Virus record (IMG/VR): IMGVR_UViG_3300037067_027684
Span: 160,001 to 224,000 of that record
Direction: 5' to 3' (one strand)
Source of the DNA: a virus
Taxonomy: Duplodnaviria; Caudoviricetes
DNA length: 64,000 nucleotides
Part shown: one piece after another, positions 10,363 to 46,813 of the stretch
Position numbering within the stretch: position 1 is the first letter of the stretch
Layout: the number at the start of each line of letters is the position of its first letter
Program-made: the position numbers and the translations under genes
The notes under the pieces: generated by a model
The model's database searches: none
Told to the model about the DNA's origin: nothing
What the model saw: the letters and a program-made list of their open reading frames with translations, nothing else

Positions 10363-10710
10363 TCATTTAAGTGCTTCCTTTGCTTTTGCTGCGATTATGC
10401 TGAAGTCGTGGCCATTGGTGGAATCGAGATGGAGTTGTTGTGCTGTGACGATTGAGACATTGTATTCCTTCGCCACTGCTTCGCAGGCTTCTAGGATTTT
10501 CTTGAGAGTTTCGTATTTGGCTAATTCTTCGTCTCGATAGGGTCCGAGTTCAATGCTGCGAGGCCAGTCGGAGATGTCATAGGTTCCTAATTCGATGTGG
10601 ATGTCTCCTTCTTGGTCGAAGTAGACATTCATTACGTAGCTGCTGCTTTTGTCGGCTCCTGTGATCTTTTTGAGTTTGAGGAAGATTTTATGAATTTCTG
10701 TCCAGGTCAT
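10363..10710 (-). CDS. hypothetical protein
   Basis: tiling ORF. Confidence 0.65.
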   Translation of the reverse strand: MTWTEIHKIFLKLKKITGADKSSSYVMNVYFDQEGDIHIELGTYDISDWPRSIELGPYRDEELAKYETLKKILEACEAVAKEYNVSIVTAQQLHLDSTNGHDFSIIAAKAKEALK

Positions 10711-11083
10711 ATGCTTGCCCTCGTGTTGTCATCCACTTTCGGTAGACATCTTCTACACAATCCGTTGGCTTCACTTTGACTAACGTTTCGTTGAACTTCA
10801 TCCAAACATCTTCTTCTACTGCTCTTTTGACGAATTGGATAACCTCGTCGGTAGCTTTGCCAAATTCTTCTCCAAAGTTTGGGGTCACAACCCACTCCAT
10901 ATTATCGTTTAGATCGAGAGATGCAAACATTGGTTTGAAGGTGTTCAGATAATCTACGTCAACTCGTGGGAATAGTAGTCTCTTGATTCCATCTGGGGTG
11001 AGTTTGGTTTTAGGTATTGGTGCTGTGACATTGGTTTGTGTTAATGTTTCTCCAATGTCTAGTGTTCTGTCTCCTAGTTCCAT
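10688..11083 (-). CDS. hypothetical protein with N-terminal ELGDRTLD tag
   Basis: MELGDRTLDIG; weak similarity to 11093-11419 (EDxWxKFN). Confidence 0.75.
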   Translation of the reverse strand: MELGDRTLDIGETLTQTNVTAPIPKTKLTPDGIKRLLFPRVDVDYLNTFKPMFASLDLNDNMEWVVTPNFGEEFGKATDEVIQFVKRAVEEDVWMKFNETLVKVKPTDCVEDVYRKWMTTRGQAYDLDRNS

Positions 11084-11092
11084 GTTATTCTC

Positions 11093-11419
11093 CTAGATTG
11101 TGTCGTTGGTTGAAATCCAGTCATTATAATAAGCGTAAGTATCAAGTAATGGGTCATCATTAAGGTCAATTCGAAGCATACATCTGTTGAACTTTAACCA
11201 TGTGTCTTCACCTGATTCTCGTGCATAGATTCTGCTATTCCGGACTGCTTCTAGAATTGGTGTGCCACCTAATGGTTCAAGGATGTGCTTGCCGTTATCG
11301 AATATGATTTGGTATAATCCTAACCTAGTCAGCGTTTCTCTACTCGCGTAGAATTTACGCTTTATGGGTTGGGGTTGTGGTGGTACCCCAAGGTCCAATG
11401 TTCTATCGCCTAGTTCCAT
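11093..11419 (-). CDS. hypothetical protein with N-terminal ELGDRTLD tag
   Basis: MELGDRTLDLG. Confidence 0.75.
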   Translation of the reverse strand: MELGDRTLDLGVPPQPQPIKRKFYASRETLTRLGLYQIIFDNGKHILEPLGGTPILEAVRNSRIYARESGEDTWLKFNRCMLRIDLNDDPLLDTYAYYNDWISTNDTI

Positions 11420-11633
11420 TTAAGTCCTGCTCTTTAGCCAGTGTGGGAAGAAAAGATTTTTCATTAGGAGATCTTTTAACTCCTTGTCATTTACCTTTCT
11501 TTTAAGAGCTTCTTTAATCTCAAGACTGATTTGGTTACTGAATAACATAGAATAGCCTTTTTCATCTGTGATTAGATAGCCGACACAATCTCCGATTGAG
11601 ACATCTGTTAACCGGAACTTCTTGCTATTAAGT

Positions 11634-12080
11634 TTAAGATTGCGTGTCATGTTTTGCCTTTTGTGCCTTCCCAAATGCGGCCCATTCCTTACATTTGGTG
11701 AGGGCTTCTTCGCGGGTCAAGCCTGTAATATAGTACTGTTGTTTCCACTCCTTCCAGTAAACTTCCCTAGAATGAAGCTTAACTCGCCACTCTGATTTGC
11801 GGTTTACATTCCGCCAAAATTCTCCATACCAATTTGACTTATCAGCAGCCGCCCAGATAGAACCAGTGAAGTTAAGATTATTAATGTGGTCATCTCCGTT
11901 CACATCTCCACGGAGGCAGACTCCTTTGTAGACTTCGTTGACCATATTTGCGTAACTTATTTGTTCATTGAGATTTTCTAGTTGGCCTGTGAGTTTCTCG
12001 AACTTCTTTTCGAGATTTTGATGCTTCTGTTTAAGCGTTTTCTTTTGTTTAAACAGTCGTAGGAGTGTGGCGTTAGTCAT
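11634..12080 (-). CDS. hypothetical protein, N-terminal coiled coil
   Basis: GAGGA RBS before MTNAT. Confidence 0.6.
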   Translation of the reverse strand: MTNATLLRLFKQKKTLKQKHQNLEKKFEKLTGQLENLNEQISYANMVNEVYKGVCLRGDVNGDDHINNLNFTGSIWAAADKSNWYGEFWRNVNRKSEWRVKLHSREVYWKEWKQQYYITGLTREEALTKCKEWAAFGKAQKAKHDTQS

Positions 12081-12591
12081 TTTCTGTGTCCTCTTCTTCG
12101 ATTTCTTCATCTTCTTCGTCGAAGTCATCTTCGTCTTCGTCGTCAGAGTGGTCAGTCACAATTTGCACATCGCCGATGATTGCATTCCCAGCAGAAATCC
12201 CAACTAGACCATCAAGAGTGCCATCAAGAGTGACTTCAACGCCTGTGTGGTTATTGTTTTTAGGGATTAGTTCCTTAGGAATAACTGCTACCTTACCGGA
12301 GTCAACGCCAAACTCGCCAATCATAATACCACTTTGGTAAACCGGATAAGAACCATCTCCGTAAGCTGTGCCAAACATAAGAATTGTCTTGCCGTCCTTC
12401 TCGCAGGTCACCCAGTCGTGGCCACAGTTATTGGGGTATTTGTCCCATTCCCACATTTTGTGGATTTCGTCCCAAGCCTTAGACGAGTGATGCAAGCTAC
12501 CCCAGATGTAGCATGGGTCGATGATCACATATTCACCCTTAAGGTGAAGTTTCTGGGGTTGATGTTGCCCACCTTTGACGTTGGTAAACAT
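12073..12591 (-). CDS. DUF4241-like protein with acidic tail
   Basis: IIDPCY, AYGDGSYPVY and GVDSG motifs. Confidence 0.55.
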   Translation of the reverse strand: MFTNVKGGQHQPQKLHLKGEYVIIDPCYIWGSLHHSSKAWDEIHKMWEWDKYPNNCGHDWVTCEKDGKTILMFGTAYGDGSYPVYQSGIMIGEFGVDSGKVAVIPKELIPKNNNHTGVEVTLDGTLDGLVGISAGNAIIGDVQIVTDHSDDEDEDDFDEEDEEIEEEDTEND

Positions 12592-12821
12592 GTTCTCTCC
12601 TTAGTAGTGACCTGTGTGAAGCATTGAATCTGAGTATTTCTTCCTTGCTACTTCAAACCAAGCTGGCGTATTCCTTGGGCGGGTGAGTTTGATATCGACG
12701 TAGAACGCACCCTTACTGTCTCCGCTCAATTTGCGGATTCTTTGTTTCCTCTTAAAGAGGACGCTCTCTTCAGGGGAGAGTGTTATGGTTGTTTCTTTGG
12801 TGCGTGGGTTATATCCTATTG

Positions 12822-13160
12822 TCACTTTTGATTCCTCCATTGTATTGGGCGTTTGTGTTCGGGGAAGCGATCCCAGTATGCTTTCCAGAAGAGTATTCGT
12901 GTTGTTTTGCTTTCATAAGTGTAATTAGGGGAATCTTTGGCTTTGTCCTTCTGGAGTTTGTCGAAGATGGACACTAGGCGTGTGAAGGAGCTTTTGCGTC
13001 CTAGTTTTTTGTTCATGGTGACATCACTATAGGAGCTAAGGAAGTTTTCATTATCGATTTTGCCATTAGTGCTTAGCATGCAGATGGTTATGTTGCCTGT
13101 GGGGCCTGGGATGTGGTGCCACCAGACTCGGTATTCGTTGTTGTTGGCTTTGATGATCAT
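12822..13160 (-). CDS. hypothetical protein
   Basis: ATGA overlap. Confidence 0.65.
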   Translation of the reverse strand: MIIKANNNEYRVWWHHIPGPTGNITICMLSTNGKIDNENFLSSYSDVTMNKKLGRKSSFTRLVSIFDKLQKDKAKDSPNYTYESKTTRILFWKAYWDRFPEHKRPIQWRNQK

Positions 13161-13873
13161 AGTCTTGCTTCCGCTCCTGTGCTCACGCTGGTTCTGGTTG
13201 ATTCCAACCTTATCATGACTTGGGTTAATGCTTTGTCGTAAGACCCTGGGTATTCACCAGTGGAGGTTACTACCATTTCTGCTGCCTTATCTGATAGGAT
13301 TACTCTGCGTAATCTACTATCACTGAGACAGTTATTGCCAACCACATCCAATATTCTATAGACTATTTTGACGATATTGTTATCTGACAGCAAAATCTGC
13401 TTCTCTTCTAGAACATAGGCCCATAGGATGAACTTGTCATCCTTGAAGTCAATGTACCATGTTCCATCGGGAATTGGGGTTTCATATTTCTTCTTCAATG
13501 CAGCTAATTGCTCTCGCTCTTCTTTCTCTCGGCGTTCTCGTGTTTTCTTAGAAAAATCTAAGATTTCGGCCAAGAGTCTTGACGCTGCTTCTTTGCAGAG
13601 TTTTTCACGATTTTCACAGCCAACCAATATATCGAGTCCGATTTGGACATCTACGCAATCATCTGATAGTGTGATGTGTTTTTCTGAGAAGTTTTCTTCT
13701 GTTATGTATTCGCCCAATTTGCCAAAGTCAGTCTTGATTGTTAGTTCGTCCATTTCGAAGTCGCATTTTGGGTCTTTTTCTACGCCTTCTTTGATTTGGG
13801 CTGCGATAAAATCGAGTGTTTGGTGGAATTTAGGCCATGTTTGTAGGAAGCTGATGAGTTCTGGTTTAGTCAT
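13157..13873 (-). CDS. hypothetical protein
   Basis: 238-aa ORF overlapping polX stop. Confidence 0.7.
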   Translation of the reverse strand: MTKPELISFLQTWPKFHQTLDFIAAQIKEGVEKDPKCDFEMDELTIKTDFGKLGEYITEENFSEKHITLSDDCVDVQIGLDILVGCENREKLCKEAASRLLAEILDFSKKTRERREKEEREQLAALKKKYETPIPDGTWYIDFKDDKFILWAYVLEEKQILLSDNNIVKIVYRILDVVGNNCLSDSRLRRVILSDKAAEMVVTSTGEYPGSYDKALTQVMIRLESTRTSVSTGAEARL

Positions 13874-14349
13874 TTTCCTCTCCTGCTTGGTTCTTTGTAC
13901 GGCATACCAAATGCCGCGTAGATACTTTCTTCCGTCTCTCCTGCGATCTTCACGTTATTCTTATCGAAGAGGCCATATTGGTTAAGTAGGTATCCTTTGG
14001 TTTTCGACTTCAATCTCATACCTATTGTTGAACCTTTCGGCCCAGTCATATAGAGAAGCAATGCTCCCCAATAGGAGGGTTCGCCTCTGTAGCAGTTGAC
14101 TTGCATGCCTTGGTAGATGAAGGTGACGTGGGTGTCGCCGGATTCCTTGATTTCGATGCCTGGGATTTGTGGGATTAGGCGTAGGTCGCCTTGGATTGCT
14201 ACGTCTAGGTCTCCGATTGTTTGTTCGCCGCGTCTGAGTGAGCCGCAGAACATGATTTCTGCGAAGCCGATGTTTTTCATTGCGGTTCGGAGTTCGCCTG
14301 AGATGCGGAGTGCTTCGGCTCGTGGTGTTGCTGTTTTGTAGCTAGGCAT
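13870..14349 (-). CDS. polX: minimal DNA polymerase X (nucleotidyltransferase palm + thumb only)
   Basis: GSLRRGEQTIGDLD, YMTG, LNQYGL, TEESIYAAFGMPYKEPSRR. Confidence 0.9.
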   Translation of the reverse strand: MPSYKTATPRAEALRISGELRTAMKNIGFAEIMFCGSLRRGEQTIGDLDVAIQGDLRLIPQIPGIEIKESGDTHVTFIYQGMQVNCYRGEPSYWGALLLYMTGPKGSTIGMRLKSKTKGYLLNQYGLFDKNNVKIAGETEESIYAAFGMPYKEPSRRGK

Positions 14350-14677
14350 TCTTATCTCCTGGGATGTCTTTCGCAGTTATGAATCCAAGTTCTGTGGCCA
14401 GCTCAATGGCATATTCAAAACCATCGGTATCGCAACAGCGAAGAGCATCGATTAAAGAGTCAATATCAAGAGCCAACTCAAGTTCTTTTGAAGATAGCCT
14501 TTTCTTAGAGGCGATGTACCAAGTGTCACCACCAAAGTCAATATAATCATTCATAAAACAACGAACTTTGGTCTTGGGCGGTGTGTCGATGTCAATGCCC
14601 ATAATTTCCATCTTCTTAATGGCTACGTTGGCCTTTTTGAGGAGTAATTTCTTGAATTCTTTCCATTTCTTGTTCAT
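14342..14677 (-). CDS. hypothetical protein
   Basis: AGGAG RBS. Confidence 0.65.
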   Translation of the reverse strand: MNKKWKEFKKLLLKKANVAIKKMEIMGIDIDTPPKTKVRCFMNDYIDFGGDTWYIASKKRLSSKELELALDIDSLIDALRCCDTDGFEYAIELATELGFITAKDIPGDKNA

Positions 14678-14686
14678 TCTTATCTC

Positions 14687-14929
14687 CTAGAAAGATGGAT
14701 TATGGATAATCCAGGTTCGGCCTGTTCCATCGGCAGAAACGCAAAGGGTATCCCATCGGGAGACTTCTCGGGGATGTTCTTTGCAGTATTGGCACTGACA
14801 GCCACTACCCATTGTGGCACTTATTGTTTCTGCGAGCGAGGGTGGGATTCGGATGTAGATGGATTTACCGTCTTTGGATTTACTAACTGGTTGGTGGCTT
14901 AAGTCTCTGATTGGGGGTCTCTTTTTCAT
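14687..14929 (-). CDS. small Cys-containing hypothetical protein
   Basis: AAGGAG RBS; CQCQYC. Confidence 0.6.
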   Translation of the reverse strand: MKKRPPIRDLSHQPVSKSKDGKSIYIRIPPSLAETISATMGSGCQCQYCKEHPREVSRWDTLCVSADGTGRTWIIHNPSF

Positions 14930-14984
14930 GTTCTACTCCTTATTTCCATTGAGGAAATGTTGGTAATCTCTAGTTTTCTCGATC

Positions 14985-15479
14985 TCACCTTCCCCAACGC
15001 CGATCTTCTTCCTGTTTGCGAACTGTTTTGAGTATTTCGACTTGGGGTGATTCGATTTTGAATGTTCGGACTGCCGGTAGCCATGCGAAACTTGTGATTG
15101 TCTCCTCGTGTTCCAGCACGATCCTCTGTAGTGCATCGTACCAGCAGGAGTCGTGGGATGTAACAAATTCCCAATTCTCCCAATTGAACTTGTGTTCAAT
15201 AAAACCGTCTGAGGGTCCAATCTTCTTGTAGATTGAGATGTAGTTGCTTGGGGCGTAGATGAGGATGCCGAGCCAGGGGAGTGGCTTGATGTTGTCGTAG
15301 ACTTCGTTCCATTCTTCTCGTCGGAATCCGATGAACCCTACTTGTTCTCGTCTGATTTTGTCGAATGGTCCTTTGGTGTATTTCTCTTCGATTTGTTGAC
15401 GTAGGCTCCAGAGGAGCATGTGGTACATTTCTGTGTGTTTTCGAACGAGTAGTTCTGGCTTTGATCCTATTGTAAGCAT
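14985..15479 (-). CDS. hypothetical protein
   Basis: AAGGAG RBS before MLTIGS. Confidence 0.6.
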   Translation of the reverse strand: MLTIGSKPELLVRKHTEMYHMLLWSLRQQIEEKYTKGPFDKIRREQVGFIGFRREEWNEVYDNIKPLPWLGILIYAPSNYISIYKKIGPSDGFIEHKFNWENWEFVTSHDSCWYDALQRIVLEHEETITSFAWLPAVRTFKIESPQVEILKTVRKQEEDRRWGR

Positions 15480-16253
15480 TTGGGTGCTCCTTTTATTGCG
15501 TGGGTTTGATTCGTCTTCTAGGAGATTTCTTTCTTTCCGCCATGTCCGTATTTCCTTGCATTGCGAGCAATCTGCACGCATGTTACAGCATGCTCATAGG
15601 TGCGTGGTACTTGATAGCCATGCCAAGCTGAGATTGCGTGATGGTCACGAATAGCTTTCTTGGCAATTTCTTTTGCATTCTTTGCGTACTTGGTATGTTC
15701 CATGATCTTAATTCCTCTCGTTATTTCTGGAAGATCCCGAATTTGTTCCCACAGGGTCTGACTTCAAGGTGTTCTGATTCGGCGTTGAAGTCTTTAGCGC
15801 ATTGTAGAATTCGGCAACGAAGTTCTTGGTCGGGTGTTTCGCCTGCTGCTCCAGCCATTGTGACGTAGTTGGCGTGGATTTCAATAAGCAGGGATATTGC
15901 TCCGACGTATTTGGTTTTCAGGGGGAAGTCCATTTTGTTATCCTTTCATGGGTTGACCGGCTTTGGTTAGCCGGTTGTGTTCGTCTTTGAGAGCGTCTTT
16001 AAGCTTATCGGCCCATTCTCGGTCTGTGAGTTTTGAGCCTGCTTGTTTGAATGTGTTGATGAGGTGTGCTAGGTCATGCAGGTATGCTTGTTTGAGCATT
16101 TGACTCTCCTTCTGTTTCTGAATTCTTGTATGATCATTCGCATTTCTCTACGGGCTGCTGAATGGATTCCACCAAGGCGGTAGAATCGGAAGGCTATGTC
16201 CAATTCCACGGGGCTGAATCCTGAGTAGAAGGTTATTCGCATTTTGGATCTCC

Positions 16254-16622
16254 TTAATCTTCGGAAGGCCAGTAATTATTTTCAACCATAAGGTTGAATA
16301 TTTCGTTTTCGGCATCGGGGTTGTTTGCGACTTGCGCCATGACTTTAATTTCTTTATGAAGATTACTAAATTCTTTGGTTGCCAGATATTCAGTTGCTGT
16401 TGGGGGCACACCAGCTTCGTTTGTGTAAGGCGCACCATCTTTGATTTCGTCTTTTTCGGAGGGGGCAAAGACTACGAAATCCACGTCAACGAATCGTACG
16501 CCGAGTGGTCCTTTCGCTCTTTCACGAACCCAGGTGAATGCTTCTTTGAGCTTTTCCTTCATTTGTTTTGGACTGATGAATCCTTCTGTACTAAAAACAA
16601 TGGCCACTGCATTCTTAGACAT
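16254..16622 (-). CDS. hypothetical protein
   Basis: AGGAGATCCAAAATG start, directly downstream of GC-rich element 2. Confidence 0.7.
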   Translation of the reverse strand: MSKNAVAIVFSTEGFISPKQMKEKLKEAFTWVRERAKGPLGVRFVDVDFVVFAPSEKDEIKDGAPYTNEAGVPPTATEYLATKEFSNLHKEIKVMAQVANNPDAENEIFNLMVENNYWPSED

Positions 16623-16640
16623 TTTGGATCTCCTTTTCTC

Positions 16641-16771
16641 GCTGCGCGGGCAGCGGACGGGCGGCACGCGCCGGATTTTGCCGGTAATTGAGCGTCGTTT
16701 ACGATCCCGTAAGCGGCGTGGCGGGGCGGTATGCGGGTACCACCAGCCGGTAGTTTGGTGGTCCTGTTTAC
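16641..16771 (-). repeat. GC-rich ~130-bp dispersed element, copy 2
   Basis: GTAAAC-N24-GGTACCCGCATACCGCC...TCAATTACCGGCAAAATCCGG. Confidence 0.85.
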
Positions 16772-17346
16772 GGAGTTCCGATGGTCGAACATTTCTTGAA
16801 TGTTGTTGAAAGCACGAAGTTAGCCGTGGCAATCGGGCCAAATCCGAAACCAAGGCCATTGATTGCGTGTGAGAAAATAATTTGATGATATCTCTCTCGA
16901 TATCTGGCGCAGAGTCCTGCAAAGCGCCGGTTTGCCTCTAGAAAAATCAGAGTTCTTGTATGATCATTCGCATTTTGCGGGCTGATGTGTGGATTTCCGA
17001 TGTATCCAAATTCCCAACGTGGGGAAATTTTCATATTGTCTGGGAACCAGAAATTACTGTTGGTGAACAGTCTATGTCCTTTTCTTAGTTGGTTCACTAG
17101 TTGGGCGTTGGTGTAGGTTTCGGATGGTTTGGTGTATTTCTTTTGGGTCATTGCGAATTGGAGCAATTCTCGGGCGATTTCCATGTCTGATTTTTCAATA
17201 TTGTTGAATAATTCTTGGAGGATTCTGAGAGCTGTGGGTTTGTCTTGGACAGTATATGCCCAGCAAGTACAATGTGGTAGATATGTCTTATAGGCGTGTT
17301 TCGAATTTAGCTTGTCTTCTTGGATTAAGCGTTTGAATTTTCTCAT
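16768..17346 (-). CDS. hypothetical protein
   Basis: AAGGAG RBS; its TAA is the start of element 2. Confidence 0.65.
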   Translation of the reverse strand: MRKFKRLIQEDKLNSKHAYKTYLPHCTCWAYTVQDKPTALRILQELFNNIEKSDMEIARELLQFAMTQKKYTKPSETYTNAQLVNQLRKGHRLFTNSNFWFPDNMKISPRWEFGYIGNPHISPQNANDHTRTLIFLEANRRFAGLCARYRERYHQIIFSHAINGLGFGFGPIATANFVLSTTFKKCSTIGTP

Positions 17347-17529
17347 TTATTTTCTCCTTGGTTTGTTGAGAAATCAGCTTGTTATTCCGTACCGGCACAA
17401 TGGCATCTGGTCACTTTTATGGGGAGCGAATGAACACTCCTCAAGGGAGCGTGTGGTGAGTATGTGATGTTGAGGAGATTTGACATGGACGTAAAGACAG
17501 CAAATGCTGCGTACCTAAAGGAGAGGAAA

Positions 17530-17850
17530 ATGTCAGATAAATGCCAGTCAGAAGAGCCAGAACCAAAATTGAGAAGTTTGGGTGACATTTCTGGTTTAAT
17601 AAAGGGGATATCTAGTAGGTTAGTTAATATTAATGTACGAGCAAGCCACTTACGTCGTAGTCTGATCGACTTTCCTGATGCCAATAAGGTAGCAGCTAAA
17701 GAAGCCAACATTGGCAAGCAGGATACTACCTTCCTCTTCGCTACTCTTCATGATCTTGGGGCAATTAGGATTGAACTTAACGAGCTTGAAAGTCATTTGG
17801 ATGCGCTTGAGAATGGTTGTAATTGGCGTGATGTAAAACAGAAAGATTAA
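17530..17850 (+). CDS. helical/coiled-coil protein, paralog of next gene
   Basis: GGAGAGG RBS; shared pattern ending LENxC. Confidence 0.65.
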   Translation: MSDKCQSEEPEPKLRSLGDISGLIKGISSRLVNINVRASHLRRSLIDFPDANKVAAKEANIGKQDTTFLFATLHDLGAIRIELNELESHLDALENGCNWRDVKQKD

Positions 17851-17861
17851 AGGGAGATCAC

Positions 17862-18176
17862 ATGACAGACCGACCTGAAGTAGAGAAAAAGTCAATCCAT
17901 CAAATTCTGCGTGAACAGGAAGATATCTGTAAGAGCTTGTCACATCTAAACAGGCGCTTAACTAATATAAGGACTAATCTTTTTGGATACGAGGACTTCG
18001 AAGAACCACATCCTGAAAGCTTCCTAGATAGGTCCTTGGACCTTATTAAAATCAGTAAGGATAATCTTAGTTGTCTCGATCACCAATTGAGAATTCTTGA
18101 GAATGTTTGTGGTGTTGCTGCTTGTGGTGAGGAGGGTATGGCAGCGACTGGTCCGCAAATTCCTAGGCGAATCTAG
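17862..18176 (+). CDS. helical/coiled-coil protein, paralog of previous gene
   Basis: GGGAG RBS; shared pattern ending LENxC. Confidence 0.65.
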   Translation: MTDRPEVEKKSIHQILREQEDICKSLSHLNRRLTNIRTNLFGYEDFEEPHPESFLDRSLDLIKISKDNLSCLDHQLRILENVCGVAACGEEGMAATGPQIPRRI

Positions 18177-18564
18177 AGAATCTAAGCGGCGGATACCTAG
18201 GAGATGAGTTGTGATCAATCAGTATCCATCTGTTTTCTACTTTGATCCAGAATGAATGTCCTGGTTGAAGAAAAACTTCTCCAAGTCTGAATGGGCCTGA
18301 GAAAACACCTGGATATTCTGGGTTCGTTCCAATTCCGACGAATAATTTTGCTGTCACGTATTGCCCTCGCACTGCTTGACGGATTTCATCGTCTGTTAAG
18401 CGTGGGTCGATGTTGTCTGATTCGATGATTTTTGATATATCGATGTTGTGCACACTCTTAAGGTCATAAATTGTTGCTTGTGATGGATATGCTGAGTAAT
18501 CGAGTTCGGTCGAAACTTTTACCTCTTTGACTCCTAGATCTAATGTTCTGTCACCTAATTCCAT
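18163..18564 (-). CDS. hypothetical protein with N-terminal ELGDRTLD tag
   Basis: MELGDRTLDLG. Confidence 0.7.
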   Translation of the reverse strand: MELGDRTLDLGVKEVKVSTELDYSAYPSQATIYDLKSVHNIDISKIIESDNIDPRLTDDEIRQAVRGQYVTAKLFVGIGTNPEYPGVFSGPFRLGEVFLQPGHSFWIKVENRWILIDHNSSPRYPPLRFSRFA

Positions 18565-18566
18565 GA

Positions 18567-18973: not shown

Positions 18974-19336
18974 CTATCTTGCCACCCACCAGACAGCATA
19001 GGTGTAAACACAGAAGCACACAGCAACCGCCCAAATGAGATGAATCACTGCCGCTGGTCCAAATATCCTCCCAGCGTTTTCAAGGAAGAGCCTGTTCCAT
19101 TCGCGTTTCTTATCGTTATCTAGCTGAATCGCACCAGCATCAGGGTGCTCACTTGGAAGCTTATAACCCTCAAAGCTTCCTCGAATTTCTGGTGGTATTG
19201 CAGCTAATGTCTTTATGACTGAGCATCGAGACTCTTCCTTTGCGGCTTCTGCTCGATCAGCTTGAGCCTTTGCTTCCAATAACTTGGCATCAGCCCCATC
19301 TCTTAATTCACCGTGTTTGATCGGTGTCCAGTTCAT
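18974..19336 (-). CDS. hypothetical membrane-anchored protein
   Basis: C-terminal hydrophobic segment. Confidence 0.6.
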   Translation of the reverse strand: MNWTPIKHGELRDGADAKLLEAKAQADRAEAAKEESRCSVIKTLAAIPPEIRGSFEGYKLPSEHPDAGAIQLDNDKKREWNRLFLENAGRIFGPAAVIHLIWAVAVCFCVYTYAVWWVAR

Positions 19337-19656
19337 TACCCCTCCAGAATTAGTTGGCGTTCGCCCAACTCTGCTACTTTTTCGGGTGGTTGTGGTATGA
19401 TGAGTCTGATATATGTTTCAGCAATGCCTCTACGAATAACTGGTAAAAAATCATTGGCGAATTTTGTAGAATCTCCATATCCAATTAATTGAGCGCCATA
19501 CCAAGAGCATTCTAACATCAAAGCAAACTTCTCACGATCTGTGACTGGAATCTCTGCGCACTTTGATATTACAGGCCACCATTTTCTTAGACACTCTGAG
19601 GGAGTAGCTTTCATTTCAGACATCAAAGCTTGGCATTCAGCGGGAGTTTTCATCAC
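19336..19656 (-). CDS. hypothetical protein with C-terminal ELGERQLILE tag
   Basis: ends AELGERQLILEG. Confidence 0.7.
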   Translation of the reverse strand: MMKTPAECQALMSEMKATPSECLRKWWPVISKCAEIPVTDREKFALMLECSWYGAQLIGYGDSTKFANDFLPVIRRGIAETYIRLIIPQPPEKVAELGERQLILEG

Positions 19657-19946
19657 TCCTCCAGAATAAGTTGGCGTTCGCCCAACTCTGAAGCCGGAAC
19701 TTTTACTGCGTCATGGATTCTACACCAACCGTATTTGCGCATATCATCTTCGTTTAAATTACTAATGTCTGTTTTACCATCGGTAACTATGACGAGGCAT
19801 TTAACGGGCAATTTCTTTAGAGCGAGTCCAATTTGACTAACCAAATGCCTATATGACTCTCTACTGTCATTTACTTTAACATGAATGACGCTCCTGTCAT
19901 TCGCGTAATTACAGACTTCTGTGACTATTGCGTCAAGCATGTTCAC
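19653..19946 (-). CDS. hypothetical protein with C-terminal ELGERQLILE tag
   Basis: ends SELGERQLILEE. Confidence 0.7.
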   Translation of the reverse strand: MNMLDAIVTEVCNYANDRSVIHVKVNDSRESYRHLVSQIGLALKKLPVKCLVIVTDGKTDISNLNEDDMRKYGWCRIHDAVKVPASELGERQLILEE

Positions 19947-20967: not shown

Positions 20968-20976
20968 TTTTACCTC

Positions 20977-22314: not shown

Positions 22315-22317
22315 TGT

Positions 22318-24162: not shown

Positions 24163-25107
24163 TCAGATTCTCGCTTTGAGGTCTTTGAGGGAATCAATGA
24201 TTTCGTTCACGTCACTCTTGAGTTCTTTCCTTTCTTTCTTATCGTTGGTGAGTTTTTCAATTGGCGGGAAGCACTTACCATTATTCCCCGTAGCTAGGAA
24301 GCTCCGCATCCTAGTCAATTCTCGTCGGAGGTTGGTTTCGGGGCGATTCTTCTTACCAGTATTCTGGTCATTGATTTTCTTCTTCCAAGCAACAATAACA
24401 GCAATCTGCTCGTCTTCGGTTTGCTTCTCCCTAATATCCTTGACCATTTCTTCAACTTGGGCAGTTGGAAGTTTGTAGTCAGAGACTACTCGTCCTGCGT
24501 CCTTTAGGACGTTGATGTTGTCCTTAACGGGGGAGAGTGATGCCAGGACCGAGGAGCAGATTCCCTTGGTATCGACGTTTTTGGATTGGAGCCTCTCCCG
24601 CACGTCTTGGGCGGTGTTTTCAGCGGTGATTTTGCTATAGGTTTCTGGTTTGCCGCCGAAGAATTGGTCGTTAAGATCTCTCATCGAGATTTTGTACTTG
24701 CGGTGTTGTTCGACGCAGGCTGCGATTTTCTCTTCTGTGTTGAGGTTCCTGCCGTGGCGGATGTTGTCTTGGCGAATGAATGCGTCTCGTTGAAGGTCTG
24801 TGATTGAGCTATCGCAGACGTAGGCGTCTACTATTTTGAGTCCTGCTTGGATTGCGCCGTTGACTCGGTTGTTGCCGCCTAGGATATAGCCTCCTTCGAC
24901 GATTACGATTGCGGGGAAGCGTACTCCTTCTTTCATTTTGCTGGCGTAAAGGGTGCAGTCGTCATCGTTTAGGGCTTTGCCGAATCGGGCGTTGTTTTTC
25001 TTGGAGTCCTCTACTTTGAGGGTGTTGATTTTGAGGTTCTCGACGTACTTCCATTTAATCTTGAGGGAGTCGAGCAACTGTTCAACGGATGAGTCCTTTT
25101 CCCACAT
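24163..25107 (-). CDS. ParB/Srx N-terminal domain protein
   Basis: FPAIVIVEGGYILGGNNRV and DNIRHGRNLNTEEK motifs. Confidence 0.7.
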   Translation of the reverse strand: MWEKDSSVEQLLDSLKIKWKYVENLKINTLKVEDSKKNNARFGKALNDDDCTLYASKMKEGVRFPAIVIVEGGYILGGNNRVNGAIQAGLKIVDAYVCDSSITDLQRDAFIRQDNIRHGRNLNTEEKIAACVEQHRKYKISMRDLNDQFFGGKPETYSKITAENTAQDVRERLQSKNVDTKGICSSVLASLSPVKDNINVLKDAGRVVSDYKLPTAQVEEMVKDIREKQTEDEQIAVIVAWKKKINDQNTGKKNRPETNLRRELTRMRSFLATGNNGKCFPPIEKLTNDKKERKELKSDVNEIIDSLKDLKARI

Positions 25108-25269
25108 GGTCAAGTATCTCCTTTTGGTTGTCCCTTGGTATTGGTGTCGCGGTTATGAGGAATTAGAAGTTACATCTAAAGAGAATAGCTGTAATTGTTG
25201 AAATGAGCAGTCCTAATAGTAACCCAATCAGGAGTCCTCGATGATATCCTTCTTTATAACAAAAACCAG

Positions 25270-25593
25270 CTAATTCTGATGCTTTCGAGCAGATTTCTGT
25301 TTCCCTTTTGGTTTGCGGCCATGGCATTGGTGCTTTCGGCATTTGGATTCTCCACCCAGAGTGCGAATTAGAAATTCTATTAGATTTTCACCACCAACTT
25401 TTCGCTCTTTGGGAGTCTTCCTGTCTTGGGTTGACAACTCTTCAATAACTAGATCGATTGCGTCTTCAAGTTGGTCAATGCGCTTTTCAACATCTTTATA
25501 GAAAACAAATTCACCATTTTTGTGTTTACATAAACGGAAGGAGGGTCCATGGAACAAGCGGGGGTTGCATCTTGATAATCGATATCGTGTCAT
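25270..25593 (-). CDS. hypothetical protein
   Basis: ATGA overlap. Confidence 0.55.
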   Translation of the reverse strand: MTRYRLSRCNPRLFHGPSFRLCKHKNGEFVFYKDVEKRIDQLEDAIDLVIEELSTQDRKTPKERKVGGENLIEFLIRTLGGESKCRKHQCHGRKPKGKQKSARKHQN

Positions 25594-26162
25594 TTGTTCT
25601 CTCCGTAGAAATGGGAGATTAGGTCGGCCTGGGCACGTAACTCAGCAACCAAATTACACATTAATTCAGGTGCGTCATTCCAGAGAGCATCAGCCAATTG
25701 TAGACTTTCAAATGCATACAGCCTCTTGAAAGCAGGACTTGCCTCATCTTCCATCAATTCTTTGAGGTTATCAATCCTATCGACTAATTTGATGATTTTG
25801 ACTTCAAGCGGTTGTTTACTTAACCGTTCTCGGTCTTTCTGTTTACGTTCGGCTCTGGTCAATCCACGTTTCTTCGGTTGGTTGGTTAATCCAAGAACCC
25901 ACAAGCATACTTGCTCACCGAAGATTTGATCAATATCGTCTAGGACTTTCTGGTACCGGTCTTTACCACACTCTTCTAACACATCGTGGAGTTCGCCAGC
26001 AATACAAACGTTATCTGGTAAGCCTAATTCGATTAACCTATCGCAAACTCTATCAGGGTGGGTGATGTAGGGTCTTCCGTTATACTTTCTGGTTTGGCCT
26101 TTATGAATTTCTGTGGCGTATTCTTTGGCTCTAACGACTTTGGGCGACATTGTTTGGGTCAT
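25590..26162 (-). CDS. HD-domain hydrolase, RelA/SpoT small alarmone hydrolase (Mesh1-like)
   Basis: HKGQTRK..GRPYITHP, LHDVLE, KLVDRIDNL. Confidence 0.88.
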   Translation of the reverse strand: MTQTMSPKVVRAKEYATEIHKGQTRKYNGRPYITHPDRVCDRLIELGLPDNVCIAGELHDVLEECGKDRYQKVLDDIDQIFGEQVCLWVLGLTNQPKKRGLTRAERKQKDRERLSKQPLEVKIIKLVDRIDNLKELMEDEASPAFKRLYAFESLQLADALWNDAPELMCNLVAELRAQADLISHFYGENK

Positions 26163-26574
26163 TTAGCACTCCTTTCTCAAGTCTAGGCGTAAAATCGGGT
26201 TTACGCTTTTGTCGTTCGATTAATTCTAGGCAATGGTGGCAGATTACTTTATCATGCCAGCAACGTTCTTCGTAGTTGCAAGAGATTTGGACCCATCCGG
26301 ATGGTGGCTTAGTCAGCAGAGGGATGGTTTCGCTTGTCCAACAGAGGTCACATACCCATTTAGTCAGGTGTTCTACTGCCATTTTTGGTTTCCTCCAAAT
26401 AGATTAATCGTGCTTGTTGCTTCATGGCTTCTGTTAAACCTCGTTCAAATTCTTTATATACTCGGAAGTATGCGTCCTTTTTAGTCATCTTCCCATTCTC
26501 GGTTAGTTGTTTGAATCGTTTGGTCATGACGTTTTGAATTGCTGCTATTACGTCTGGTGTTTCAAACCAAGGCA

Positions 26575-27156
26575 TTAGTTCCCCTCCATAATCAATTTTC
26601 TATCGCCAATTTCTGCATTTGGTGTTCTAGATCCAGGGATTAGTCGCCCGAGGACTTTTGGGTATGAGTATGCGCATTGAAATATCCCAGTTTTAAGGAT
26701 TGTTTCCATCTTGTAGATTACTAATTTTGGGGCGTTGATTATCATTCCTTTGTCATTTACGACATTCCCATTGAGGCATGGGTGATTGATCAGTGGCATT
26801 GCTTCAACTAGTAACTTATCCCAATTTTGATGTAGGAAGCAAATATCATCATCTGCTTTGATGACGTATTCATATTTCGACATCCACGAGTAACTTGGGT
26901 TCATACGTAGACAATCTACATAGGAGTACCAATTCATGTATTCAACGTCGTGATGGAATATGCAGTGGGCGGTTGGTAGTCTATCTTCTGGGAAGGTTAC
27001 GTCTCTTAGGGCTGTTTTGTCCAGCATGAATATTCTTGCGACTGGGGAGTCTGCTGAGTGCAATGTCTGTCGATCAACAGATACTGTCTCGATCAGTGAG
27101 TCGTCCATTTCGACCCAGTGGTTACAGGTTATCTTTACTAGAATTAGTACTTTCAC
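26575..27156 (-). CDS. glycosyltransferase-like protein with C-terminal EIGDRKL tag
   Basis: YEYVIKADDD DxD-type motif; ends AEIGDRKLIMEGN. Confidence 0.5.
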   Translation of the reverse strand: MKVLILVKITCNHWVEMDDSLIETVSVDRQTLHSADSPVARIFMLDKTALRDVTFPEDRLPTAHCIFHHDVEYMNWYSYVDCLRMNPSYSWMSKYEYVIKADDDICFLHQNWDKLLVEAMPLINHPCLNGNVVNDKGMIINAPKLVIYKMETILKTGIFQCAYSYPKVLGRLIPGSRTPNAEIGDRKLIMEGN

Positions 27157-27410
27157 GATTTCTTTTGAAATCCACCATGGGCCTGTAGGTTGAGGGTGTC
27201 CATTTGGCGTCGGTAAGCTTGTTTGACTGCAAGAAAATGTCGTTCCATGGCCTCAATCTGTACTCGTAGTTCGCTCATGCTGTCTTGGTTGAGGTTTTTG
27301 ATGCCTGGAATCAATCCGTTTTCTAGGGCGTAAAGCTCTAATTCGGCTCGACCAGCTAAATCCAAAATCAGTTTGTCAACGGCTGGATCACCTTGGCAAG
27401 GTTCACTCAT
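27153..27410 (-). CDS. hypothetical protein
   Basis: tiling ORF. Confidence 0.6.
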   Translation of the reverse strand: MSEPCQGDPAVDKLILDLAGRAELELYALENGLIPGIKNLNQDSMSELRVQIEAMERHFLAVKQAYRRQMDTLNLQAHGGFQKKS

Positions 27411-27681
27411 TTTCTTTCTCCTTAGTGTCAGATACTCTCGATTGTTCGACTACAGCTTCAACATCTTTCTTTATCTCTTGTAGAGCTGACATAAAGGCTG
27501 CTGTGTCTTCTTCATACGTGGTGTCAGGGGTGCACCATCTAAATTCGATGCCAAGTCTTTTCATTTCTGGGCTAATGTCTTTGGTGTGTAGGTTGAATAT
27601 TGTGTTGAATTTGAATTCTGGTCCTGCTTTGGAGTTATAGATGGTTTCTGCTCTGTTAATTAGTTCGAGTAGTTTCTTCAT
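27403..27681 (-). CDS. hypothetical protein
   Basis: AAGGAGG RBS. Confidence 0.65.
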   Translation of the reverse strand: MKKLLELINRAETIYNSKAGPEFKFNTIFNLHTKDISPEMKRLGIEFRWCTPDTTYEEDTAAFMSALQEIKKDVEAVVEQSRVSDTKEKENE

Positions 27682-28058
27682 GCATCCTCCTTGTTAAACG
27701 TCTTGGGCTAGGGCTTCTATTCTTGAGGCTAGGTCTCCTAGTTCGTTGGCTTCTTCCATGAAAGATTGCCAATTATATTTTGGCTCTTCTCCTTTTAGCT
27801 TAGATATTTGGTTTGCTGCTTTCATTGCTGCTATTCGTGCGTTACATTGATCTGCTTGGGTTCTTAGTGCTATGATTTTGCCGACGTAGTAATTCATGGG
27901 TTACTCACCTCCCAAAGCCGCAATCATCGTGTCTAGAATGTTGCTGTACGCAACACTGGCTCTCCTAGCCTCCGAGAAGAGGGCAGGCAACATTGAATGC
28001 TCTATGTGGTCAATATTTTGACTTCTCTCGTTTCATTCATCGTTTTCTCCTACTTTCC

Positions 28059-28376
28059 TTACTGGAAACATTTGATCCCATTCTTAAGGATGTAATCGAC
28101 CTTCTTGTAAGTCTCCCACAATGTCAAAGCATCACACAACAGTTTCTGGCGAACGTTCGGTGGAATACGTTTAAATGAAGTAATTTTCTTGGGCTTAAAA
28201 TCACCCCATTCTGCGTCTAACTCTTCGAACCACAGGAATTCAGCAATCTTAATAAGCTCTTTCTTGTGGGGGTGTTTGGCCATGAAGGTTGGACTGGGAG
28301 AATAGGTTCGTAGGTCCATTTTTCTGATTGCTTCGGACCAACCTTCAAGCCAATTTTTACAAGCTTTGTTCTTCAT
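28059..28376 (-). CDS. hypothetical protein
   Basis: ATGA overlap. Confidence 0.65.
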   Translation of the reverse strand: MKNKACKNWLEGWSEAIRKMDLRTYSPSPTFMAKHPHKKELIKIAEFLWFEELDAEWGDFKPKKITSFKRIPPNVRQKLLCDALTLWETYKKVDYILKNGIKCFQ

Positions 28377-29173
28377 TGTAATTCCTTCTTGACGTGGACG
28401 ATTTCAACTTGGGTTGAAACTCCGGACCACTCTTTCAGGTACACTGAGGTATCGATGCTGGTTGCTTCGAAAATGATACCTGTTTGGTCTTTAAACTTCT
28501 CGTATTCTTTATTCAAAACCTGTTGGTAATTCATACATCCACTGTAATGGAATGGACAGGATCGTTGGTCTACAATAAAGGTTGCAAACTTCACATATTG
28601 TAAGGCGATTTCTGCAAGCGCGTATGTGGATTTACCACCGGTATAGTTCAGGCCGGTGAAGTTGGTTGGCTTGATTTTGAGGAAGGGTGGGTTGCTGATT
28701 ACCTCGTAGGCTGAGCCAATTTGTTCCCAAGTTTTGGCGTCAAAGGCATCCCCTAGAATCCATTTGGCGTCTGGGAGGATTCGTTTGCCTACTTCTATGA
28801 AGGTTGGGTTGTTTTCAACACAGATGTGTTTTGCCCCACCGCCTCCCATTATTTCTTCTGCGAAGCTTAATGCTCCAATTCCTGCACATACGTCCACAAT
28901 GGTTCCGATCCCAATTACTTCTAGAGAAAAATCTCTTGCTAAGTCATAAGGGGTGAAGAATGTTCCTGTTTTGCCAACATTGTGGGAGGCTTGTGGGTTC
29001 CAGTTTTTGAGGATGTAGATTTTCTCGTCTATGGTTAGGGGTTTGTCTTGTTTGTGACATTTTACCCAATCATAGGAGTCTGTTTTTTCGTGATAGAAGA
29101 GGCATGCTGTGCCGTCAACTAATTGTTGGGCTTGTTCGTGATTTTTGGTTGCTATTTTGCTTAATTTAGACAT
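28373..29173 (-). CDS. SAM-dependent N6-adenine (amino) methyltransferase
   Basis: GTFFTP, VDVCAGIG (motif I), ISNPPF (motif IV). Confidence 0.85.
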   Translation of the reverse strand: MSKLSKIATKNHEQAQQLVDGTACLFYHEKTDSYDWVKCHKQDKPLTIDEKIYILKNWNPQASHNVGKTGTFFTPYDLARDFSLEVIGIGTIVDVCAGIGALSFAEEIMGGGGAKHICVENNPTFIEVGKRILPDAKWILGDAFDAKTWEQIGSAYEVISNPPFLKIKPTNFTGLNYTGGKSTYALAEIALQYVKFATFIVDQRSCPFHYSGCMNYQQVLNKEYEKFKDQTGIIFEATSIDTSVYLKEWSGVSTQVEIVHVKKELQ

Positions 29174-29510
29174 TTTTCTCCTTAACCGGCCAGAGTTTGG
29201 GGAATTTACCATCACGCATTTGATTTACTCGTCGTGTGATCAATTCGATGTGATCTGTGTTTAGCCCTTCACCAAGAAGGGAGACTAGGGCTTTGCACCA
29301 TAATTTGTCTCGTTCAAGGCATTCTTGTGGCTCACTGGTTTTGTCGTTAACGAATTTAAACTCTACCATCAAATCAGGGAATCCTTGGTCGATTGTGGAT
29401 TCAAGGCTCACTACAAGTTGCGCAACCGTAAGTCTCTGTGGGATGTCCGGTTCGGGTGGGTACGGGAAATCTTTTGGGTCGTATGAGTTTACAATTGGTC
29501 TGTCTTTCAT
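29166..29510 (-). CDS. hypothetical protein
   Basis: tiling ORF. Confidence 0.6.
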   Translation of the reverse strand: MKDRPIVNSYDPKDFPYPPEPDIPQRLTVAQLVVSLESTIDQGFPDLMVEFKFVNDKTSEPQECLERDKLWCKALVSLLGEGLNTDHIELITRRVNQMRDGKFPKLWPVKEKNV

Positions 29511-29965
29511 TCTTTCACCTTTAGCACTTTGGCTGTCCCTTCATCCAAATCAAGTTCAATCCTGATGTTCTCACCCCATTCGATAAATTTTTGGGCAACT
29601 TCCTTAATCTTTTCGCACTTTTCTTCGGATTCTTCGGAGCCGTGCATTTCTATTTCGTTTTCGCAGGCGTAGGACACAACATCTGGTGTTTTGAACCTGA
29701 GGCATACTTTACCATATTTCTTCTGAGATACTCCAGTGGGCGAGTTTGCCTTTTCTTTAAGAATAGTTTCTGGAAGGTAGACGCAATAAGAGTTGCATTG
29801 GTCGAACGCTACCTCGACTTCTCTGCCAACTGGATTAGGGTAATCCTTCTTGAGGTCTTGGACATTTAGGATGCGAAATGTAGATCCTTGGAGTCTGCCT
29901 GTGCTGAGTATTGCTTGGTATTCTTTGGTTGCTTCGTAGATTACGACGTGTGCGTGTTCTATCAT
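29507..29965 (-). CDS. hypothetical protein
   Basis: tiling ORF. Confidence 0.6.
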   Translation of the reverse strand: MIEHAHVVIYEATKEYQAILSTGRLQGSTFRILNVQDLKKDYPNPVGREVEVAFDQCNSYCVYLPETILKEKANSPTGVSQKKYGKVCLRFKTPDVVSYACENEIEMHGSEESEEKCEKIKEVAQKFIEWGENIRIELDLDEGTAKVLKVKE

Positions 29966-30124
29966 TGGTCTCTCCTTCGTATGTTCTTTACTAGTTCAGC
30001 CATTTCTTTGAGCCATGGTTTGGGGATTGCTTTGCCTGCTTTCAGGTATCGGTTTCCTGCTTCGATGATTTCAAGCAAGCGTTCTTCCTCCGCTATCCAG
30101 CGGGGTCTGAGTCCTAGTGGAGGC

Positions 30125-30361
30125 TTAGTAGGTTGCTGCATCTCTGCGATTCCAGCAGTCAGCCATCTTTTGTTTGAGTTGGTCGGTATTTTGACCTTTT
30201 TCATGGAGGTCAAATTCATCGTAAATCACATGCATCGACCCGAAACAATCCTTATTCTTGCAGACTATATTGAGTGATGGGAATGATTTCATATTCCCGT
30301 ATGTTTCGGTGAATTTGGCTTCTGATCCACAGTGGGGGCATGGCTTTAGGGTCGGTTCCAC
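30125..30361 (-). CDS. Lar-family restriction-alleviation-like zinc-ribbon protein
   Basis: LKPCPHCG...CxxxxC...WNRR. Confidence 0.65.
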   Translation of the reverse strand: MEPTLKPCPHCGSEAKFTETYGNMKSFPSLNIVCKNKDCFGSMHVIYDEFDLHEKGQNTDQLKQKMADCWNRRDAATY

Positions 30362-30362
30362 G

Positions 30363-30656
30363 TTATTTCCTCTTTAACGTTCTGGATGCCATCCACATAG
30401 CTGTATCAATTGTTTCGTAACGGAGGTCGGACATTTGATCCCGATCATTGGCATTCCAATCTTTTGGTATTACTAGGTGTTTGTTGGCTTCAGCTAGCCA
30501 TTGGCTGAGCTTGACATAATTATGCTTCTCCCAATAGTGACCGTGGTTGATTATGTAGGAATGTTCATCGAACTTGGTGAAGTCAATTCCATCGTGATAA
30601 CCACGGATGAACTTCATTAGGTCTTTCTTGGTGAACTTCTTCATTTTGGGCTTCAT
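30363..30656 (-). CDS. hypothetical protein
   Basis: AAGGAGG RBS. Confidence 0.65.
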   Translation of the reverse strand: MKPKMKKFTKKDLMKFIRGYHDGIDFTKFDEHSYIINHGHYWEKHNYVKLSQWLAEANKHLVIPKDWNANDRDQMSDLRYETIDTAMWMASRTLKRK

Positions 30657-30846
30657 TTTTCCTCCTTAATAACTGAGACTTTGGGTACCCAGACTGCTCC
30701 TTTTTCGCCTTTGAATTTGACGAAAATCTTATTGTCGGTTCCGGCCCAATAGACTTTACCGGTTTTCTTTCCGTCTGCTGTTTTGATCTTGTCACCTTGG
30801 GTGAGGATTACTTGTTCTGGTTTCATCTTGATCCTTTCTTGTTAGC

Positions 30847-31509
30847 TCACTCATTCTTTAGCTCATTCATCATGGACCTGAGGCGCTCAAATTCGTTGTC
30901 TAAGGAGGCTCGATCTTCAATCCTGCCTGTACTTGGGTTGACCCATCTTAGTGTCTGTGCTGGTGGTCTTATTTCTGGTTTGGGTGTGGTTGGTTTATTA
31001 GGTCTAAACCAGAATTTACGAAAACGCCCCATTATAGTTCCAAACCAAGTTTTTCGATAATAATCAACTTCTGTTTCTGCTCCATCAATTAGATCCCTAA
31101 CGCGGGCATCTTCTTCAGCTTCGGCTGCGGCATCCCTAACGCGAGCATCCTCTTCAGCTTCGGCTGCGGCGATAAGGGCTTGCTGACGAATCCTACGTAA
31201 ACGATCCTTAATTTCTCGATTTTCTCTGTCCCTCTGAAGTATCCTCGTCATTTGGACAGCAGCATCATCAGGTCGTGGGAGTTGAACTACGGAACATGGT
31301 GTTCTTAATTCAGTTTGATCAACAACTGCCTTCTTCGTCTCGGATTCAGCAATAATACTATCAACAGCTTTGGAGAACTTCTCCAAAACTTCTAACTGAA
31401 CAGCCTTGTTGAGATTCTCAAAACTTTTAGTGAGCTTGGTGATCTGCTTAGTTAGTTCCTCAGATGGATTCTCACCAAAATCAAGCTTCCTATCACCAAG
31501 CTCACCCAT
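30847..31509 (-). CDS. coiled-coil protein with N-terminal ELGDRKLD tag and internal 13-aa repeat
   Basis: start MGELGDRKLDFG after GAGG; AAAEAEEDARVRD occurs twice. Confidence 0.7.
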   Translation of the reverse strand: MGELGDRKLDFGENPSEELTKQITKLTKSFENLNKAVQLEVLEKFSKAVDSIIAESETKKAVVDQTELRTPCSVVQLPRPDDAAVQMTRILQRDRENREIKDRLRRIRQQALIAAAEAEEDARVRDAAAEAEEDARVRDLIDGAETEVDYYRKTWFGTIMGRFRKFWFRPNKPTTPKPEIRPPAQTLRWVNPSTGRIEDRASLDNEFERLRSMMNELKNE

Positions 31510-46812: not shown

Positions 46813-46813
46813 T

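Follow-up and report, generated by a model that had tools for sequence, protein, structure and literature searches.

Seven small proteins encoded in a 64,000-nucleotide stretch of DNA from a tailed phage (Caudoviricetes) begin or end with the same short peptide, here called the tag, which has the core G-[DE]-R-x-L-[DE/I]-[LIF] and is seated on Pro-rich or polar linkers. The stretch, referred to below as the window, comprises bases 160001-224000 of IMG/VR record IMGVR_UViG_3300037067_027684, which is 246,684 bp in its entirety. The seven peptides are, on balance, probably copies of one short linear docking motif of an AAA+ module. The tag recurs as the C-terminal tail of the phage's own Cdc48/PAN-like AAA+ ATPase and, in other phages and in apparently cellular contigs, on AAA+ homologues and the products of genes beside them.

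Position and coding of the seven peptides

A search of all six frames of the window with the expression E[LI]G[DE]R.L returned exactly seven matches, all on the minus strand and all at true protein ends, at the coordinates named in a preliminary description of this DNA (Table 1). Four stand directly behind a start codon and three lie 4-5 residues ahead of a stop codon. Shine-Dalgarno-like GGAG or GGAGG sequences are present at the usual spacing before most of the N-terminal copies, which are therefore real N-termini, and the GAGG before ATG 31509 favours this start over the upstream ATG 31563. The Leu, Gly, Asp and Arg codons vary freely among the copies, with differences between codons at almost every position; the synonymous codon sets quoted in the preliminary description are correct and conservation is at the protein level. 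In the three C-terminal copies the final codons double as the Shine-Dalgarno sequence and overlapping start codon of the gene that follows, as in the gene ending at 19336, where CTG GAG GGG TAA TG serves both functions. The I-L-E-G ending of these copies, as opposed to D-L-G, is thus partly a dual-coding effect, which the core G-[DE]-R-x-L is not. A 101-residue open reading frame (window 53785-54090, minus strand) contains E-L-G-D-R-R-G 22 residues before its end; the first five residues of the tag are present, the following Leu is absent, and this may be a decayed copy.

Table 1. Tag copies in the window and the proteins that carry them.
Peptide	End	Position	Strand	Carrier	Remarks
M-E-L-G-D-R-T-L-D-I-G	N-terminal	11051..11083	-	131-residue ORFan, 10688..11083	GGAG 7 nt before ATG; no Pfam/PHROG match
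M-E-L-G-D-R-T-L-D-L-G	N-terminal	11387..11419	-	108-residue ORFan, 11093..11419	followed by Pro-rich linker
M-E-L-G-D-R-T-L-D-L-G	N-terminal	18532..18564	-	133-residue ORFan, 18163..18564	
E-L-G-E-R-Q-L-I-L-E-G	C-terminal	19339..19371	-	106-residue ORFan, 19336..19656	
E-L-G-E-R-Q-L-I-L-E-E	C-terminal	19656..19688	-	97-residue ORFan, 19653..19946	
E-I-G-D-R-K-L-I-M-E-G-N	C-terminal	26578..26613	-	193-residue ORFan, 26575..27156	
M-G-E-L-G-D-R-K-L-D-F-G	N-terminal	31474..31509	-	220-residue protein, 30847..31509 if ATG 31509 is used	GAGG 6 nt before ATG

Distribution of the tag and selection on it

Across the whole genome the strict expression gives nine matches, all of them terminal, and the relaxed form [LIVM]G[DE]R.L gives 15, of which 13 lie no more than nine residues from a frame end and a fourteenth lies behind an in-frame ATG. 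Three further terminal copies were picked up by a position matrix. Looser copies end the AAA+ ATPase and a 292-residue protein; the DUF6744 protein of the phage contains one 24 residues before its end, and the WGR protein has one internal and one terminal copy. In total about 20 proteins in the genome are carriers, eight with the tag at the N-terminus and the remainder with the tag at the C-terminus or within a tail; two linker copies exist, and C-terminal or internal copies account for more than half. Enrichment was assessed on a greedy gene set of the genome with within-protein shuffles as the null. The pattern G[DEN]R.L occurred 14 times in terminal segments against an expectation of 0.60 (the maximum in 200 shuffles was four), and twice internally against an expectation of 3.2, which bears out the terminal enrichment that the preliminary description had put forward as a genome-wide check. 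A looser hydrophobic-acidic-hydrophobic C-terminus without the Arg was not enriched in the genome (14 observed versus 10 expected).

The carriers are, as first described, mostly unrelated to one another, and they are not full-length paralogs. When the tag was trimmed, BLASTP linked two of 136 pairs at E < 0.01, comprising two WGR-type proteins (1.9e-13) and, weakly, the products of the adjacent genes starting at 11083 and 11419 (5e-4), while at least 15 carriers have nothing in common besides the tag. None of the seven in-window carriers matched a family in Pfam or PHROGs; carriers encoded outside the window include a GHKL ATPase and a WGR-domain protein.

The phage was compared with a near-identical relative, the 249,992-bp NCBI metagenome contig L014. 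Inside the tags there are only synonymous changes, whereas flanking residues are replaced. The tag of gene 18163..18564 displays three synonymous changes and no replacements, with two residues just behind it replaced, and that of gene 19653..19946 has one synonymous difference; in gene 11093..11419 the tag and linker are kept and the C-terminal part of the protein is different. The confinement of change in the tag to synonymous sites, the exchange of a C-terminal half behind the same tag and the unrelatedness of the carriers together demonstrate selection at the level of the peptide on a portable element. In the L014 orthologue of 10688-11083 (L014:10587-10660) the frame reads M-K-R-M-E-L-G-D-R-T twice in tandem across the called start, and the start of the tag appears to be duplicated there.

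The tail of the AAA+ ATPase and its partners

The AAA+ ATPase of the phage (genome 116999-120103, L002) is intein-bearing and ends ...A-R-T-L-D-I-G. Its C-extein was searched against 1.84 billion metagenomic cluster representatives and the 150 best homologues were examined, a quarter of which have tails of the type [RK]-x-[LIVM]-x-[LIFMV], compared with 2.5% for shuffled tails. The same type of tail is present on 30 of 60 non-redundant IMG/VR homologues. No curated NCBIfam cut-off is reached by the family, whose nearest relatives are the D2 domains of VAT, Cdc48 and p97 together with PAN and FtsH; Cdc48, p97, VAT and PAN are protein unfoldases. An AlphaFold2 (AF2) model of a 550-residue homologue, with a predicted local distance difference test score (pLDDT) of 92.8 overall, aligns over its full length with the tandem D1-D2 of p97, Cdc48, Rix7 and NVL (template-modelling score about 0.6). 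Alignment of the first 240 residues with D1 of p97, Rix7 and NVL points to a degenerate D1 and not a p97-type N domain, and the ATPase is thus predicted to comprise a degenerate D1-like domain and an active D2. The last 20 residues of the model are flexible (pLDDT about 55), and the AF2 monomer leaves its own tail undocked. The intein of the ATPase contains a LAGLIDADG endonuclease domain, as does an intein in a C-methyltransferase (91687-94161, L001).

Four further contig sets from huge phages have AAA+, DUF6744 and WGR proteins with matching ends. The tails are ..RQLDLDE, ..RELDLT, ..RDLDLD and ..RELDLF in L021; ..RILDL, ..RKLDLD and ..RILDL in L022/L023; ..RQLDI, ..RELDI and ..RTLDL in L028, where the WGR protein has a second, internal copy; and ..RTLELH, ..RTIEI and ..RALEL in L029. 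Elsewhere a variant is shared in the same way: L-T-L ends both the AAA+ and the adjacent DUF3150 protein in L027, and a basic R-V-I-R-R ends the AAA+ and two downstream proteins in L031. At many IMG/VR loci the gene after the AAA+ gene, which encodes either a DUF3150 protein or a member of an unnamed family of about 270 residues, has two copies of the tag 12-18 residues apart in a Pro/Ala-rich tail, as expected of avid docking on an oligomer. When the tails of AAA+ and partner proteins were compared at three core positions in 23 loci, 48 of 69 positions agreed compared with 37 in permuted pairings, and 8 of 20,000 permutations reached the observed concordance; the copies were hand-picked from related loci and the test is uncorrected for phylogeny. 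Several AAA+ columns (27, 36, 121, 201, 207, 320, 333 and 432 in P0005 numbering) are Lys or Arg mainly in members with acidic tails, but this is confounded by relatedness, and covariation of charge between tail type and ATPase is a lead only.

Minimal loci in apparently cellular contigs contain a tailed AAA+ with only DUF1257 and DUF2997 genes. A DUF1257-like gene is present in seven of the nine contexts examined, the exceptions being the short contig L021 and the context beside P0065. The DUF1257-like protein displays a ferredoxin/ACT-like beta-alpha-beta-beta-alpha-beta fold (best Z 6.3, not specific), and the structural look-alikes of the DUF6744 protein in the ESM Atlas are confined to its own family. 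The GHKL carrier has an orthologue in another phage (37% identity) that begins M-R-E-L-D-L; its gene adjoins a DUF1257 gene, and an AAA+ gene lies on the same contig. The 96 other GHKL homologues are without an N-terminal extension and start directly at the conserved core. In the literature nothing was found on this tail, on DUF6744 or DUF3150, or on a tail of Ycf46-type ATPases.

Two further features of these loci were observed. The third gene of many AAA+ modules (L035:12389-12727 and 14 other IMG/VR loci) encodes a conserved protein of about 113 residues without family assignment, which starts M-P-C-D-T, has a His-rich end (H-S-H-D-G-G-x-x-W-H) and may bind metal. In L024:64-8937 a tailed AAA+ with DUF1257 and DUF2997 adjoins genes of an extracellular contractile injection system (eCIS), comprising sheath, gp19 tube, Pvc16_N and eCIS_core.

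A proposed docking motif of the AAA+ module

In the mechanism proposed here the tag would act as the address label of the Cdc48/PAN-like AAA+ module. It would tether its carriers to one common receptor site belonging to, or working with, the ATPase assembly, for which the candidates are the AAA+ ring itself or the small DUF1257-like and DUF2997-like companions. Docked carriers would be brought to the machine either as cofactors or as clients for remodelling. In this phage lineage many small accessory proteins would have acquired a copy of the label, some of them at the N-terminus, which is unusual; its spread to about 20 proteins, mostly ORFans, and its N-terminal use set this phage apart. The flexible linkers, the use of either end or of linkers, the frequent bivalence and the lineage-specific code common to the carriers of a genome argue for one co-evolving receptor. 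The preliminary description had proposed a portable docking motif that recruits diverse cargo to one hub, and its portability is upheld by the terminal enrichment, the synonymous drift that reflects peptide-level selection, the unrelated carriers, the paired copies, and tails that change in concert between loci and agree within a genome. The link to the AAA+ family is likewise an observation; physical binding, the identity of the receptor or hub and the fate of a docked protein are inferences. One complex was predicted, with the L028 AAA+ (residues 1-512), one DUF1257-like and one DUF2997-like protein and the N-terminal 45 residues encoded by the window gene that starts at 11419 as its chains; the scores of 0.00 and 0.30, against a mark of 0.32, count neither for nor against binding.

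Several points weigh against a docking motif of the AAA+ module. A recognisable tail is missing from half of the AAA+ homologues, and the ATPase may itself be no more than a client of a hub outside the module. In relatives, of which 6-22 kb were seen, the tail is confined to the module's own proteins, so that a receptor shared by those proteins and the tagged ORFans of this phage is an assumption. N-terminal use elsewhere is rare, being represented by the one GHKL orthologue. The ribosome-binding site of the following gene also has a part in determining the last residues of the three C-terminal copies in the window, and the choice of copies for the concordance test and its lack of phylogenetic correction, described above, tell in the same direction.

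Alternative explanations

The alternative that survives best, although it is unlikely, places the hub outside the AAA+ module: it would be a host protein (a chaperone, protease, polymerase or clamp, for instance) or some other protein of the phage, and the AAA+, DUF6744, WGR and GHKL proteins and the ORFans would all be its clients. A tail on the ATPase itself is as expected of a client rather than a reader, and the AF2 monomer leaves its tail undocked. The GHKL and WGR proteins, and an NAD-dependent ligase encoded nearby, are a hint that the platform may be bound to DNA. The tail is, however, retained in the minimal cellular loci, where the only companions are DUF1257 and DUF2997 genes, and it changes in step with the locus (LDL, LTL, LEL, VIRR), which is hard to square with a conserved host hub. 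No phage clamp (gp45, beta-clamp and PCNA families), proteasome or ClpP family was matched in the phage record, although this is weak evidence. Clamp-binding motifs, one of the analogies drawn in the preliminary description and exemplified by the gp45-binding C-termini of T4, resemble the tag in being of terminal pentapeptide scale with an L-D-[LF] core and in occurring at either end of unlike proteins. Compared with the beta-clamp-binding motif QL[SD]LF (PMC11139829), however, the tag has G, D/E, R and L as its invariants, with no Q and no (terminal) aromatic residue. Unlike clamp motifs, moreover, it travels with the AAA+ module and not with replication genes.

It is improbable that the tag is a degron, through which the AAA+ or an unfoldase of the host would unfold its carriers or remove them at a set time, instead of a tether for stable cofactors. 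The ATPase is indeed of the Cdc48/PAN/FtsH kind, unfoldases engage flexible N- or C-termini, matching tags at both ends, and many carriers are small accessory ORFans of a kind possibly needed only briefly. Nevertheless, the ATPase and its conserved partners are tagged themselves, often with two copies, and internal linkers are used, all of which suits tethering better than removal. Searches of the phage record with the Proteasome and CLP_protease families revealed no peptidase partner, although a negative search carries little weight in a phage this divergent.

Little credence can be given to a capsid-targeting or cargo-loading peptide of the T4 or encapsulin type, by which the carriers would enter the head and then be injected. 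Short terminal peptides shared by small, fast-evolving phage proteins do resemble those of T4 internal proteins, the tag is likewise a ten-residue portable address on small unrelated proteins, and its L-G-x-x-x-L spacing recalls some encapsulin loading peptides. Unlike either type, the tag occupies both termini as well as linkers, and an ATPase is among its carriers. The T4 capsid targeting sequence is strictly N-terminal and is removed at a following [LI]-x-E site, whereas over half of the tag copies are C-terminal or internal and no consistent protease site lies behind the tag. The Gp23 family of T4-type capsid proteins had no match in the genome, which is weak evidence in so divergent a phage. 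Encapsulin cargo-loading peptides are found on cargo encoded with an HK97-fold shell gene; the tail is kept on AAA+ proteins in DUF1257/DUF2997, DUF3150 or eCIS loci with no shell gene in view, and a tail that is conserved where capsid genes are absent altogether speaks against a role in capsid loading.

Tags that bind one another, with the copies on different proteins zipped to each other and the carriers thus held in one body, are more doubtful still. The same peptide is on all members of the module and its core contains both R and D/E, but the all-basic R-V-I-R-R on three proteins of one lineage would self-repel, which argues against tag-tag binding, and a stable zipper would need a longer peptide with less Gly around it. 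A tag without function, left over from paralogy or produced by in-frame translation of a DNA repeat, might be suggested by the two paralogous carrier pairs and by the three C-terminal tags that overlap the next gene's ribosome-binding site, but it is refuted for practical purposes, as codons differ almost everywhere, at least 15 carriers share nothing else, enrichment is terminal only and the motif recurs in distant genomes.

Comparison with known docking peptides

By analogy, the tag most resembles in operation the tethering peptides of AAA+ adaptors and the cofactor motifs of p97/Cdc48, and also the tails of proteasome activators. It would be a member of none of these systems, as it lacks the defining residues and the defining receptor of each. 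Only one analogy of the preliminary description holds, that with chaperone or adaptor tags, since a Cdc48/PAN-like AAA+ family and the proteins encoded beside it have the motif as their conserved tail; encapsulin and clamp peptides each have a defining feature that the tag lacks.

Like AAA+ tethering peptides generally, the tag is short, is mounted on a flexible linker, is common to unrelated proteins, and co-occurs and co-varies with one AAA+ family (the covariation being uncorrected for phylogeny). The C-terminal XB peptide of SspB, which docks on ClpX, similarly ends a flexible tail, is present in more than one copy per adaptor and tethers unrelated proteins to one ATPase ring. Unlike XB, the tag is found at either end of its carriers and on the ATPase as well, its sequence is unrelated, and the ATPase is without a ClpX-type N domain. 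In the p97/Cdc48 system, which provides the closest structural relative of the ATPase, unlike cofactors have short N-terminal, internal or C-terminal motifs, and the C-terminal tail of p97 is itself read by PUB/PUL domains. One of the cofactor motifs, the SHP box F-x-x-F-x-G-x-G-x-x-L (225-FRAFSGSGNRL-235 in Ufd1), depends on two invariant Gly together with two Phe, and its binding site on p97 is the Nc lobe of the N domain (PMC5042407). Its G-x-R-L stretch is superficially like the tag, but the tag has one Gly and no Phe, and the N-terminal 240 residues of the ATPase, which align with D1, provide no N domain.

The C-terminal docking tails of PAN, Cdc48, Mpa and Bpa (HbYX/GQYL motifs) need a free C-terminus and a penultimate Tyr. 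They also place one tail on unrelated proteins, including AAA+ rings, and insert it into a partner ring. The tag, however, is without Tyr, includes eight N-terminal and two linker copies, and is not accompanied by a 20S or ClpP gene match. The EEVD tails of Hsp70 and Hsp90, which are read by TPR co-chaperones in a manner that needs the C-terminal carboxylate, are comparable in that two unrelated ATPases, here AAA+ and GHKL, have one terminal peptide, although no TPR reader was recognised for the tag.

A broader view, held more tentatively than the docking motif itself, is that phages and some bacteria encode a hub-and-cofactor system like that of p97. The clientele of a double-ring AAA+ unfoldase would be set by a portable label of 6-10 residues that evolves into a different code in each lineage (acidic R-x-L-D-L, L-T-L or basic R-V-I-R-R) and is in this phage placed on roughly 5% of proteins, at either end, such that one machine handles a set of accessory proteins. 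The tag is now tied to a concrete, widespread and uncharacterised module that consists of a Cdc48-like AAA+, DUF6744, DUF3150 or WGR partners and DUF1257/DUF2997 companions. If this view is correct, the module would represent a viral counterpart of the p97/Cdc48 cofactor network and provide a first function for several DUF families, and the tag would be a handle by which about 20 ORFan phage proteins could be grouped into one pathway.

The phage and its relatives

IMG/VR labels the record a provirus. The relative L014, however, is collinear with the record but differs from it in circular permutation, and a 371,794-bp contig also encodes one of the carrier proteins. Instead of a prophage, the record may represent a whole phage genome that is circularly permuted. 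A lookup of sequencing runs located DNA of the phage in groundwater and landfill metagenomes, with no RNA data set among the runs listed. The Terminase_6C family had no match in the record, which in so divergent a phage is weak evidence. A megablast search of GenBank phages with 22 kb of the phage matched nothing, and tblastn of the GHKL carrier against GenBank phages gave one distant match that did not cover the tag region; a search for related loci seeded with the same carrier found none. A word search with a tag-bearing N-terminus matched only the phage itself and one near-identical relative, and the exact back-translated tag pattern had just two matches in IMG/VR, both in GC-rich non-coding frames.

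Other features of the phage

A second shared N-terminal peptide, F-[DE]-Q-K-L-[DN]-x-A-L, which is distinct from the tag, is present in window 7825-8127 (minus strand) and in a relative of 59% identity (L028:6166-6519). Window 6978-7853 (plus strand) contains a caspase-like Peptidase_C14 gene with a lipoprotein-type signal sequence, which adjoins a peptide deformylase gene; both assignments are precomputed Pfam matches on L014. This protease was considered as a processor of the tag and rejected, since its signal sequence makes contact with cytoplasmic tags unlikely.

Elsewhere in the genome, at about 46500-53300 (L007), consecutive genes resemble, on inspection by eye, the effector genes of a type I CRISPR-Cas system, with a Cas3-like HD start followed by genes for 478, 395, 219 and 194 residues, and a TnpB-like gene was likewise recognised by eye at 68681-69832. 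An adenylosuccinate-synthetase-like gene at 240186-241445 (L010:16189-17445, minus strand) matches the PHROG '2-aminooxy adenylosuccinate synthetase' (1.1e-33), a PurZ-type match that may point to modified adenine in the phage DNA.

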